Source: a virus (taxonomy: Duplodnaviria > Heunggongvirae > Uroviricota > Caudoviricetes). Taken from it: DNA of 11,747 nt. Made by a program: the position numbers. Positions 3,001-6,000 of this stretch are shown piece by piece. How positions within the stretch are numbered: the stretch's first letter is position 1; the number at the start of each line of letters is the position of its first letter. The stretch is from positions 1 to 11,747 of IMG/VR virus record IMGVR_UViG_2698536355_000019, one strand, 5' to 3'.

Positions 3001-6000
3001 GATTCAGCTAAAACTTTTGTTCAGGAAACTCTGAAAGATACCTGGGAGTCTGCTGACGAGTGGTTTGTTCACTAATTAACACGTAAAATCGGTAACGGCT
3101 GGAAATCATTCAATACTCGCACTATCGAAAGTTCGCCAGCCAGCCGTGGCACGTTCTTGCATACGACGTGCCGCGGATCCTATTATTCTAGTATGAAATC
3201 CCTAACCGATTTCAAATTCTCCAGACTGCTCAGATTCTCTTTTATCCCACGCTGGCGCTGATAAATCTCGTCATTGCAATCGACCTGCGCTATCGCTGCC
3301 GCAGTTCTTCCAGTTTCTGCATCGATAACTCCATCTTCTGAGCAATAAACCTCACCTATGCAATATTTTATGTCAATTATTTCAATTGCATTAATATCTT
3401 GAATGGATTACATAGAGTTAATGTATCCAGTACTCCCTATTCTCTTGCATATAATACATGTTGCAACTTACATCTCAGCGCTATGAAAAAACACCACCTC
3501 TCTCTTTATGAAATTCTGGATTTACCAAGCGCTAATTTATCATTTCAATCTACCTTTAAGCATTGCATTTATCTCCCTACGAGGTCATACTTTAGGAAGT
3601 TAAATATGAATGATAATATACCTACAGCGCGAAATCACAAACAATCGACTTGTATTACAGAAAAAAACATGCCTATCTTTTTAAACTTCACAGCAGGCAG
3701 TATCTTACCTGAGAATGAGCTAGCATCTTTACGTTATATTGTGCAGCAAAATCAAAATGATACTGTAATCATAAAAGAACGTTATAAAATGGATATCCGT
3801 TATATCGAATCAGTCAATGGTTTTACAGTAAATCCTGTATGCAGTAATCATTTCTCCATATTTATGGCGAGACAAAACACTATTGCTCGCAACCTGGAAC
3901 AGCAGATCAACAACGGACGAAGTTTTGCACAAATATCTCAGGATTTTATGCTTCAATTATCTTCAAATATAGGATGGAAAAAAGGGGCCGAAAACGCCCT
4001 TAAAAATAAAATCCATTCTCATTCATTTGTTGTAAATCCTGATGAATTCTCTTGCGACACACAATTTCTTAAGTGCCCAATAACATTATGCGTTCCAGAA
4101 AAAGGGGTTTTTGTCAAGAACGCACTGAACTCCAACATATGCACTCTTTATGATAAGTCTGCGTTCATGAATCTCACAAGAGAACATCTACCCCACCCTC
4201 TCAGCAGGGAAAAGATAGTAAAAGAAATGATTATTGAAAGGAATATGTGTTATTTTGACACCATAAGTCAGCATTTCATAATTATGGATGCAGACCAACA
4301 GAAACAGCATTGTAAATAAAATGTAATAATTACATACTATTAGTGATTCTCATGCATCGTAAGCGGCTCGCCAGAACCGTATTGATATTTACTGAGCGCT
4401 CAGATCAACTTTCCATGGCAACAGATCGCGTACCCGGTTTGCCGGCCAGTCCTGGATATGCTCCCGCCGACAATATTAATGGCCAGGAAATGTTTAAAAC
4501 AATGATTCTGTTTCCTAACCATCAAGTGTATATGCTGGCTCAATTACTCAATATCTATGGGTTGAGTTCTACCCAAAGTGGCTCTGTAGTCGCTTCTTCT
4601 TACAGTATGTTCAGGTGTTGCAGGCACAGTTGTGGAGCGTAGATGCGTTGTTGGTTTACCATGCTCTGGTACATAAAAAACGCCAGTGCCATGGTAACCT
4701 GATATAGAAACGTTAATTCCGCGACGTTCAAACTCGGCATAGACGTGTTCTGCTAAAGACCTCTTTTGACCAAATAATGCCCTGGCCAACCAGCCGTTAT
4801 TCATATTTGCGGATTTTTCTATTTCATCAGGAGAGAAGTCTTTGTTTTTTATTATGTTGGCTGAGTTACAGGATGTTAATCTGATATCATCTATTTCATG
4901 AAGATTATGTTGAACAATGCGGTCGACAATATCTGACGGTGATAAAAATTCATCTCCGCACTTAAGAAGAGGTAGACCAGCAGAACCATGCCCAGACAGA
5001 TAAATTTTGTTGTATTTTCCTGGTGTTAAATCATCTGGCAGGATGGTTTTCATCTCTGTCGCTGTAATACTTATAGCTGCAGCAGCAACAACATCGCTAT
5101 TACTTGATTGTAGATGGCTTTTATTTGCTCCAGGATATGTAAACTCCATTTTCCTTTTATCAAAATCTTGTTTTGTAGCATCATTCAGGAATAATAAATC
5201 ATACGGTTTTTTCCCCGTTGTGACTCTTGAAACATTTTGGCCAAGAATATTAAGAGTATAGTCATTAACGGATTTCATTCCTAAAAAAACAAGTAATCCT
5301 TCTTTCTCTTGCGCTTTTTCGATTGTTCTCCCTGCTAAAGTTATTGGGATGGATTGAGATTGTTTTGTCGGAACTGATACGCTGGCGCTAATAGGTAGTA
5401 GGGTTCTTATGCTAAACATACAACCTCTTTCTTAATTTTCGAACCTGTTTAGGATTCTGTGTAAATTCAAAATAAACCTGTCTGAACATTCCTAACAAAC
5501 ATCCACCGGACATGACAACAAAAAACGGAGCCGGACTCCGGTTTTTGTGAAGCTGTCGGCTATTTCATTCCGCCAATATTTTCCCACGTCCCGTCAGCAC
5601 GCAGAATTTGCAGCGGTCTTACCACGCACTGTATCTGCTTTTTATCCGCATCCAGTATCACCACCTGCGTGATTACCCTGGCCTGCTCCGGGATAATGCC
5701 ATTCTCATCGGACTCCAGAATGTCTGCCGGTCCCAGTCGCAGCTGTGCTGTAGGCGACTGCACGTGTTCACGGCCATCATGCTTTCCGCAACCACACAGA
5801 CACTGCATAAGTTTTTTTAGTATATTCATGTCATTCTCCTGTTCTGCCTGTATCACTGCCCACTTCATCCAGCCCCTTAACATCCTGCCACGGCCCGTCA
5901 CCAAACCTGACCTGCAAATGCCGAAACAGCCCCTGAACCTGTGTGGCATCTTTGGGGTCAAGAAAGGTCAGTCCGGTGATGAGTGCGCCATCTGTATCCG

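Follow-up and report, generated by a model that had tools for sequence, protein, structure and literature searches.

The small gene directly downstream of the tail-fibre gene in the window (the whole stretch of 11,747 nucleotides analysed here) arose by duplication of the PfC domain at the C-terminus of the fibre itself, from which it has diverged. It closes the late tail operon and, on the basis of peptides of its phi24B homologue gp59, is translated during lytic growth. The gene is already known, as PHROG 576, as a RefSeq "phage tail fiber C-terminal domain-containing protein", as ORF68 of Sp5 and as gp59 of phi24B, and Pfam, PHROGs and RefSeq already record its domain relationship with the fibre; in the lambdoid and Stx phages of EHEC it forms a conserved family of 89-aa, PfC-only proteins. 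Our analysis adds three results that narrow the options for its function: conservation is higher in the small copy than in the tip, there is no sign of tip exchange, and the gene and the distal fibre are inherited together. In our best reading the gene is neither an exchangeable tip nor a silent cassette, and its product is neither a Tfa nor a lipoprotein. Tentatively, and with a good chance of being wrong, we see this product as a dispensable mini-trimer that is expressed and either assists the distal lateral fibre or associates with it, by a mechanism that we infer. The gene is present in nearly every collagen-fibre lambdoid/Stx prophage of EHEC, a group of phages that disseminates Shiga toxin and type III effectors.

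A number of arguments establish the duplication. First, residues 28-89 of the small protein align with the fibre C-terminal domain at 22/62 identical positions (35%; BLASTP, E=6e-11) and identity with the copy-1 fibre tip is 39%, close to the roughly 40% at which the earlier note had put this paralogy. Second, the Smith-Waterman score of the small protein against the tip is 111, when 2000 shuffles give 23.3 +/- 3.9 with a maximum of 45 (z=22), and the relationship thus withstands the shuffled control. Third, PF06820 (Phage_fiber_C) matches both proteins, at 8.9e-35 over residues 28-89 of the small one (119.3 bits where the cut-off is 25, with the whole profile, positions 1-64 of 64, covered) and at 5.3e-35 over fibre residues 287-350, and phrog_576 covers the small protein along positions 1-89 of 89 (2.7e-58). 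A search for an unrelated family returned PF06820 as the sole Pfam match of the small protein; there was no Caudo_TAP or other Pfam match at E<=1 and no NCBIfam match, in agreement with the view that this is not a standard Tfa. The similarity had also been described as visible in the DNA, where it proves weak: the codon-aligned nucleotide identity of small gene and tip is 55%, and the longest common exact word, of 11 nt, lies off register, aligning to the collagen part of the fibre and not to the tip. An AlphaFold2 monomer of the small protein, built from a 7-row alignment, has a pLDDT of 52.7, the phi24B authors likewise obtained no confident AlphaFold model for this domain, and a PDB sequence search found nothing.

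Table 1. Features of the fibre and small-gene loci in the window.
Feature	Position	Strand	Remarks
Intrinsic terminator, hairpin CGGAGTCCGGCTCCG + T-run	5516..5540	-	-21.5 kcal/mol, z=-3.1
Small PfC-only gene, copy 1	5560..5829	-	89 aa; PF06820, phrog_576, RefSeq homologue WP_001023379.1
Allelic patch in N-terminal 27 codons, copy 1 vs copies 2/3	5752..5826	-	~16 differences in 75 nt
Coupling junction	5830..5839	-	GGAG 5839-5836, fibre stop TGA 5833-5831, 1-nt spacer, ATG at 5829
Fibre gene copy 1, 3' part (collagen Gly-X-Y repeats + PfC)	5831..6508	-	
PfC trimerisation/tip domain (64 codons) + 11-residue tail	5834..6058	-	last 75 codons of copy-1 fibre; paralogous partner
Small PfC-only gene, copy 2	8761..9030	-	SLCGCGKHDDRENGELL allele
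Fibre gene copy 2, 3' part	9032..9710	-	ends at N-run 9711-9718
Small PfC-only gene, copy 3	10364..10633	-	identical to copy 2
Fibre gene copy 3 (PfN end, coiled coil, collagen, PfC)	10635..11747	-	runs off window end

The 89-codon ORF is real and lies on the minus strand, with its ATG at 5829-5827 and its TAG stop at 5562-5560 in copy 1. The earlier note had it overlapping the fibre stop; the two genes are instead adjacent, the fibre TGA being separated from the ATG by one base (C at 5830). The close coupling itself stands: the string GGAGAATGACATG is found at the junction of fibre and small gene, the small gene has its own SD and ATG, and the junction is identical in 81/87 copies elsewhere and the same in Sp5. 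No promoter-like site was found on the small gene's strand. The terminator hairpin begins 20 nt past the small-gene stop and is the end of the late tail operon; prophage-to-prophage homology stops just past it, and the cargo beyond differs. In the window, the copy-1 fibre gene is truncated on its 5' side at an N, beyond which lies an IS3-family element, and copies 2 and 3 lie in a 1603-bp direct repeat. The junction of this repeat is an N-run, so that an assembly join may account for part of the three-copy arrangement. The three small-gene copies of the window, of two alleles, sit in a rearranged and possibly mis-joined prophage end.

The part of the small protein in front of the PfC domain (residues 1-27) comprises a short helix, an LCGCGKHD motif, whose Cys cluster is as previously quoted, and a variable linker. 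Among 95 haplotypes, C12, H17 and D18 belong to the invariant positions of the N-terminal part; residue 10 is R in 79, S in 8 and C in 8, and C14 is replaced by Y in 10. The linker has two main haplotypes, HDGREHVQS.. and HDDRENGEL.., and the patch in which copy 1 departs from copies 2 and 3 is allelic mosaicism in this region. The clustering of these differences was rightly noticed, but the flanks, which had been given as identical, carry a few more, mostly synonymous. A lipoprotein or signal-peptide reading of MNILKKLMQCLCGC was discarded by the PROSITE lipobox rule: the leader is too short, with 13 residues preceding C14, and residue 10 is Arg in most alleles.

The small gene travels with the distal half of the fibre and the terminator as one module, in short- and in long-tailed phages. 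A block of 871 nt that starts inside the collagen region and ends past the terminator is common, at 94.5% identity, to the podovirus Sp5 and a siphovirus-type O26 prophage, and the small gene lies downstream of a PfN-coiled coil-collagen-PfC fibre in window copies 1-3, O26 11368, OkiPb01717 and Sp5. In the survey of other prophages that had been suggested, an intact small gene sits directly downstream of 72/77 PfC fibre tips of IMG/VR. Homologues of the small protein occur in 296 phage records, mostly of Stx phages, and the fibre-plus-small-gene segment in 719/5426 complete E. coli genomes, at a median of 11 places per genome. A HMMER search against 1.84 billion representatives returned only 89 matches, mostly fragments and chimeras, among them a few long collagen proteins with PfC-like half-units (P0230, P0246); those to repeat proteins (P0220, for example) seem spurious. 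Apart from E. albertii, the scan of genomic contigs gave only two contigs, which bear the labels Xanthomonas pisi and Clostridiales MAG and are contaminated or mis-binned.

A paralogue that adjoins the expressed tip invites the idea of a reservoir, i.e., of a spare PfC sequence that would recombine into the fibre gene and produce tip variants, and this idea has been published (Mondal et al. 2016, PMC5155283). There is one rare natural deletion fusion of the kind, the cluster P0062 (4 member sequences), in which the collagen region is joined to a small-type PfC at an 11-nt microhomology. Yet its junction has 0 matches in IMG/VR. In complete E. coli genomes, a fusion-junction query gave uninformative matches, put together by the search from two halves 630 nt apart. 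Fibres ending in a small-type tip were sought by DNA pattern scans of IMG/VR, with 0/102 occurrences of the small-type domain as the end of a fibre ORF: all 102 lie in the context of their own small ORF, 7 of them with small indels at its start. The protein homologue search gave only short proteins, even with the fibre tip as query, and so says nothing about full-length fibres. Neither the high DNA identity nor the recombination machinery of a silent cassette is seen, since the longest exact match is out of homologous register and the ORF list of the window, of which a minority was scanned against family libraries, contains no invertase or reverse transcriptase. The would-be cassette is, moreover, less variable than the expressed tip, has its own SD and ATG, and is translated. 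The earlier proposal of a template for tip exchange is therefore not supported, and we regard a donor role as very improbable.

Selection acts differently on the two copies of the domain. At similar pS (0.10-0.14), pN/pS is 0.076 in residues 28-89 of the small protein and 0.26 in the fibre PfC, the latter value being that of intact copies only (frameshifted copies inflate it to 0.64); in the N-terminal part of the small protein it is 0.32. The variable sites of the tip (8, 9, 16, 21, 40, 44, 46, 64) align to invariant or near-invariant sites of the small protein, and small-gene and tip alleles are only weakly associated (MI <= 0.17 bit). Rather than following the specificity of the tip, the small protein, with its invariant sites and weak allele association, fits a partner that recognises conserved fibre surfaces. 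These contrasts, together with its absence from fibre ends, speak against the suggestion that the gene is an alternative or exchangeable receptor-binding tip. A functionless duplicate could also hitch-hike with the fibre 3' end and terminator, the block serving as a homology arm for the shuffling of downstream effector cargo. Such a role would suit the abrupt end of prophage homology past the terminator, the many deletion chimeras with one end inside the small gene and the indels in the A7 run of ~7% of its copies (IMG/VR scan), but a pN/pS of 0.076 at a pS of 0.14 reveals selection on the small protein itself and not on the DNA alone, most copies are intact and peptides are observed, so that we give this explanation very little credence.

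The peptides in question, ADGTWENIGGMK and VITQVVILDADKK, are unique to gp59 and have a count of 3 each in the virion proteome supplement of phi24B. The proposed check by virion proteomics is thus positive, at trace level only: the counts are ~6 for gp59 and 2267 for the fibre gp61, which after length correction corresponds, by our own estimate, to roughly 2% of fibre chains, and such traces could reflect contamination. The phi24B data are compatible with a fusion or with free gp59 alike; a fusion entry outnumbers gp61 in a single band, which also yielded other small proteins such as a 74-aa ORF and which we read as low molecular weight. A programmed frameshift fusing the fibre and small ORFs was considered and rejected, no signal for it having been found by Mondal et al. 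(PMC5155283).

Could the small protein nevertheless be a virion-borne distal adhesin or alternative tip, its trimer docking at the end of the fibre, like T2 gp38 on gp37, and supplying the actual or a second surface for receptor binding? It is encoded in the position of adhesin and Tfa genes, its peptides come from purified phi24B virions, and the phi24B authors consider that the ligand of the fibre tip is probably not BamA. Against this, the trace amounts are those just given, and the protein shows strong conservation, while variability is usually greatest in the adhesins. Furthermore, in Mondal et al. (PMC5155283), where only nine ORFs of Sp5 are given as essential, the fibre is essential and ORF68 counts as one of the late genes that are not, its dispensability being for infection of K-12. 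An adhesin consequently seems to us quite improbable. We think much the same of a soluble decoy or exclusion factor, whose free PfC trimers, set free at lysis or active within the infected cell, would occupy the ligand of the fibre tip, shielding progeny from debris or blocking competitors. The loss of the virion-attachment domain with retention of a tip-like one, the presence of at most traces in virions and the dispensability in single-phage laboratory assays (PMC5155283) would fit a decoy. But the protein has no signal peptide or lipobox (its Cys residues are at position 14 or earlier), so that any action as a decoy would have to follow lysis. Nor is there co-variation between its surface and the variable positions of the tip, which a specificity-matched decoy should show, and it has no PADLOC match.

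The reading that we tentatively prefer, a dispensable mini-trimer associated with the distal fibre, would work as follows: 1) the protein, which has no virion-attachment (PfN) domain, would be a free mini-trimer (trimerisation being presumed) in which a short N-terminal helix and a Cys/His motif are followed by a flexible linker and then a PfC knob; 2) it would be an accessory partner of the distal fibre, either helping PfC and collagen to register or assemble, or transiently capping the tip; 3) a PfC-to-PfC or PfC-to-collagen contact is suggested purely by position and co-inheritance, the gene sitting where other phages place Tfa-type helpers; and 4) the yield or function of the fibre would be improved under natural conditions, the protein being neither a structural tip nor a recombination cassette. 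The PfC of the fibre is known to trimerise and to renucleate the collagen helix (Ghosh et al. 2012, EPclA/EPclB; PMC3368898), and recombinant EPclA is a soluble trimer without the small protein (PMC3368898), so that any helper role is non-obligatory in the laboratory. Of the chaperone derived from the tip, which had also been envisaged, what survives is the possibility of such a dispensable helper. A free tip-derived mini-trimer with its own role outside the virion, for example as a trans-acting seed of the collagen register, as a docking partner that keeps the lateral fibres folded back or as a soluble post-lysis blocker of a conserved ligand, is in our view unlikely; if true, it would represent a new type of accessory factor for fibres, arising from a duplicated fibre tip.

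The closest known systems are Sp5 (VT2-Sakai) ORF68 and phi24B gp59, which belong to the same family (89 aa, >90% identity) and have the same GGAGAATGACATG junction and the same terminator; nothing essential differs, the window having three copies and two alleles. The PfC of EPclA/EPclB is the same PF06820 domain, at 35-39% identity, but in the small protein it stands alone behind a 27-residue Cys/His leader, not a collagen helix, and is more conserved. As in the invertible fibre segments of Mu and P1 and in diversity-generating retroelements, a second tip-coding copy adjoins the expressed one; however, 55% identity is far lower than in template/variable repeat pairs, and here the spare copy is expressed and has a higher conservation than the tip. 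Lambda Tfa, Mu U, P2 G and T4/T2 gp38 are encoded directly after the fibre gene. So is the small protein, with its 1-nt spacing and conserved SD, and a similar relation to the distal fibre is likely. In contrast to Tfa-type proteins, it derives from the fibre's own tip, and according to the literature it is not needed for folding or for infectious particles, the fibre folding without it (PMC3368898) and the gene being listed as dispensable (PMC5155283). The likeness may extend to trimerisation: by analogy, the small protein would be a small trimer-forming module by a collagen helix, and its C-G-C motif recalls interchain cystine knots such as that of collagen III. The T4 fibritin foldon, the procollagen C-propeptide and the collagen III cystine knot are nucleators of trimerisation that act in cis, within the same chain, whereas the small protein is a separate polypeptide.

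The small protein is indeed a paralogue of the fibre tip, as the earlier note had proposed. BLASTP aligns it with the fibre at 35% identity across 62 residues (E=6e-11), identity with the tip of copy 1 is 39%, and the Phage_fiber_C domain (PF06820, hereafter PfC) occurs in both proteins, at residues 28-89 of the small one (8.9e-35) and 287-350 of the fibre (5.3e-35), which also matches the Pfam domains phage_tail_N and Collagen. The Smith-Waterman score against the tip is 111, against 23.3 +/- 3.9 for 2000 shuffled controls (z=22). The similarity claimed for the DNA is present but weak: identity is 55% in codon register, and the longest exact word, of 11 nt, falls in the collagen region of the fibre and not in the tip. 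In a few long metagenomic collagen proteins, among them P0230 (565 aa, with a collagen region) and P0246 (938 aa), there are units in tandem that look like the C-terminal half of PfC (...VVVLDAD...ILRVRxADGTWxEIPA), a sequence likeness suggesting that PfC may have descended from a more widespread beta unit of fibre shafts.

The gene was known and annotated before this analysis. PHROG 576, a 'tail fiber protein' family of 89 positions, covers the protein end to end, and RefSeq, which names it 'phage tail fiber C-terminal domain-containing protein', has genomes with the order J, Lom, a 437-aa fibre and the small gene; in the Stx2 phage Sp5 (VT2-Sakai) the homologue follows a 645-aa fibre across a junction identical to the window's. 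The fibres are the collagen-like EPclA and EPclB of Ghosh et al. (2012, PMC3368898), who named PfC, showed that it works as a trimerisation module and renucleates the collagen helix, and obtained soluble trimers from recombinant EPclA alone. Sp5 genes have been deleted in-frame in a K-12 lysogen, where nine late ORFs proved essential, fibre ORF67 among them (Mondal et al. 2016, PMC5155283). Given these databases and papers, both the earlier note's observation and one of its interpretations were in print.

Features of the small-gene locus and its surroundings in the window
Feature	Position	Strand	Remark
dusA	542-1579		
Integrase	1668-2765		
'EspS' gene	4544-5419		
DinI-like gene and NleG-type effector ORFs	within window		
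'Tail assembly protein' pseudogene fragment	about 5493-5559		67 nt, RefSeq PGAP
Hairpin and T-run	5540-5516		begins 20 nt past small-gene stop
Small gene copy 1	ATG 5829-5827, stop 5562-5560	minus	89 aa
CTAAAAAAACTT	5812-5818		codons 4-6 of copy 1
Collagen-like tail fibre, 3' part	stop TGA 5833-5831		upstream of small gene copy 1
GGAG	5839-5836		ahead of small-gene ATG
IS3-family element	about 6510-7750	minus (ORFs)	ORFs 7420-7746 and 6533-7420
N positions	6509 and 9711-9718		
Direct repeat	8116-9718 / 9719-11321		1603 bp
Small gene copy 2	8761-9030		
Small gene copy 3	10364-10633		

The window corresponds to the end of a lambdoid prophage integrated at dusA. The fibre stop, one base and the small-gene ATG follow in succession, so the two genes are adjacent and do not overlap as had been thought; the small gene's strand has no sigma-70-like site in the fibre 3' end. 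Fibre copy 1 is truncated on its 5' side by the IS3-family element. The window holds three fibre-plus-small pairs where complete genomes have one at the prophage end, and its N-runs sit exactly at the IS/fibre junction and the direct-repeat junction, which suggests scaffold joins or local rearrangement. The PGAP fragment, called in the O26 prophage (L001 9931-9997) and in another retrieved locus (L165 11012-11078) and matching about 5493-5559 here, lies directly past the small-gene stop and covers the terminator; it may be what is left of an ancestral tfa, or the call may be spurious.

The small gene accompanies the fibre tip closely, as a survey of the kind suggested in the earlier note shows. 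It lies intact directly 3' of 72 of the 77 tips that matched our query in IMG/VR with enough flank, and is partial in three, frameshifted in one and disrupted at its start in one of the others. The junction AACAGGAGAATGACATG is identical in 81/87 copies, the terminator is conserved, and divergence begins beyond it. A single 871-nt block (94.5% identity; L002 10396-11265 vs L001 9110-9980) is common to Sp5, a short-tailed podovirus, and the O26 prophage, of the long-tailed siphovirus type. It runs from inside the collagen region through PfC and the small gene to past the terminator (the last ~183 fibre codons, small gene and terminator); upstream of it these two share no nucleotide similarity, the N-terminal parts of their fibres being unrelated at the DNA level. 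Inheritance of the small gene therefore goes with the fibre's distal half rather than with the half that attaches to the virion.

Variation argues against an alternative tip that differs between copies. Across 95 haplotypes with intact tip and intact small gene, pN/pS is 0.076 in the small PfC (codons 28-89; pS 0.14) vs 0.26 in the fibre PfC (pS 0.11), and 0.32 in the small N-terminus (codons 1-27). Eight tip positions vary (numbered within the last 75 residues: 8, 9, 16, 21, 40, 44, 46 and 64) and pair, in pairwise alignment, with invariant or near-invariant residues of the small protein. Of the two, the small copy is the constant one, not a variable alternative tip. Variants of the two are weakly associated (<=0.17 bit) although <300 bp apart; nor is the small protein a specificity-matched mimic of the tip. 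The evidence says that the protein is under selection, and we consider a functionless hitch-hiker very improbable. Between copy 1 and copies 2/3, the clustered differences at 5826-5752 are real; the flanks, reported as identical, have a few extra changes, mostly synonymous.

A recombination reservoir is just as improbable. The small-type PfC core lies in a small-ORF context in 102/102 IMG/VR occurrences (95 with the normal start MN(I/V)L..., seven with small indels there, mostly 1-nt changes in an A-run) and ends a fibre ORF in none of them. A natural deletion fusion does exist in cluster P0062 (4 member sequences), where the 11-nt microhomology GGGACCGGCAG links collagen with the small PfC, but this junction is absent from IMG/VR, and the proposed template for tip exchange finds no backing there. 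In several chimeric ORFs (P0062, P0024, P0065, P0087 and P0067) a deletion or rearrangement ends within the small gene, around codons 17-40, and the partner upstream is collagen, CII-like, J (DUF1983), Lom or of unrelated sequence.

Across alleles, the leader has the pattern MN(I/V)L(K/R)K(L/I)M(Q/E)(R/S/C)LCG(C/Y)GKHD, and a variable linker comes next; the leader's never-varying residues include C12, H17 and D18. Most haplotypes have Arg at residue 10, and 10/95 have Tyr in place of C14, which excludes a lipoprotein signal. The AF2 model has a low-confidence helix at residues 3-12. A short trimeric helix with a Cys/His knot would be a reasonable guess. At codons 4-6 some alleles have an A7 run, with a 1-nt indel in about 6/102 IMG/VR copies, and a start at the in-frame ATG of codon 8 could yield a form of 82 aa, annotated as such in cluster P0018 (414 members). 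These indels could reflect a slippage-prone on/off switch, start-site variation or sequencing error.

Virion proteomics, another check proposed earlier, indicates that the protein is made. In the portion of the phi24B cryo-EM preprint's proteome supplement used here (doi 10.64898/2026.04.10.717836), two peptides unique to the small-gene product gp59 (ORF 39891-40295), ADGTWENIGGMK and VITQVVILDADKK, have a count of 3 each vs 2267 spectral matches for the fibre gp61; the supplement places both in a hypothetical fusion entry that bears the remark 'Spike or just gp59?'. That entry ranks above gp61 only in gel band EA1829, which we read as low molecular weight since it also holds other small proteins (e.g. 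a 74-aa ORF), and the signal would fit a free small protein. A rough length-corrected estimate from these counts puts gp59 at at least about 2% of fibre chains. The preprint's main text has no discussion of gp59; it neither resolves nor confidently predicts the fibre C-terminal domain, which it argues is probably not the BamA binder. The small protein lacks the attachment domain and is at most sub-stoichiometric in virions. A virion adhesin and a post-lysis decoy are both unlikely readings, to about the same degree.

The fibre-3'-end plus small-gene segment occurs in 719/5426 complete E. coli genomes (median 11 places per genome), and tblastn finds the gene in 296 phage records, mainly Stx-converting, including VT1-Sakai, 2851, 1717, 2B8 and phi330. 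The family is very narrow in range: among 1.84 billion representatives a profile search retrieved 89 matches, nearly all Escherichia fragments or chimeras, the species of the named homologues are E. coli, E. albertii and Citrobacter rodentium, and 185,579 species genomes yielded E. albertii and two contaminated or mis-binned contigs. Near-identical E. coli phage fibre/small-gene DNA in a 725-bp Xanthomonas pisi contig (L162) and a Clostridiales MAG contig (L164) most likely reflects contaminated or mis-binned public assemblies.

The earlier observation is thus confirmed with small corrections, its interpretation partly supported. The evidence says that the small protein is selected and that it is expressed along with the fibre, both coming from the late transcript; it goes with the distal fibre module and is listed as dispensable in laboratory assays. 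The best fit, which we propose tentatively, is a free PfC mini-trimer that would serve the distal fibre as an accessory partner, helping its assembly or register or, alternatively, transiently capping its tip. In other phages the slot after the fibre gene houses Tfa-type helpers, and it is this genomic slot that the small gene occupies.
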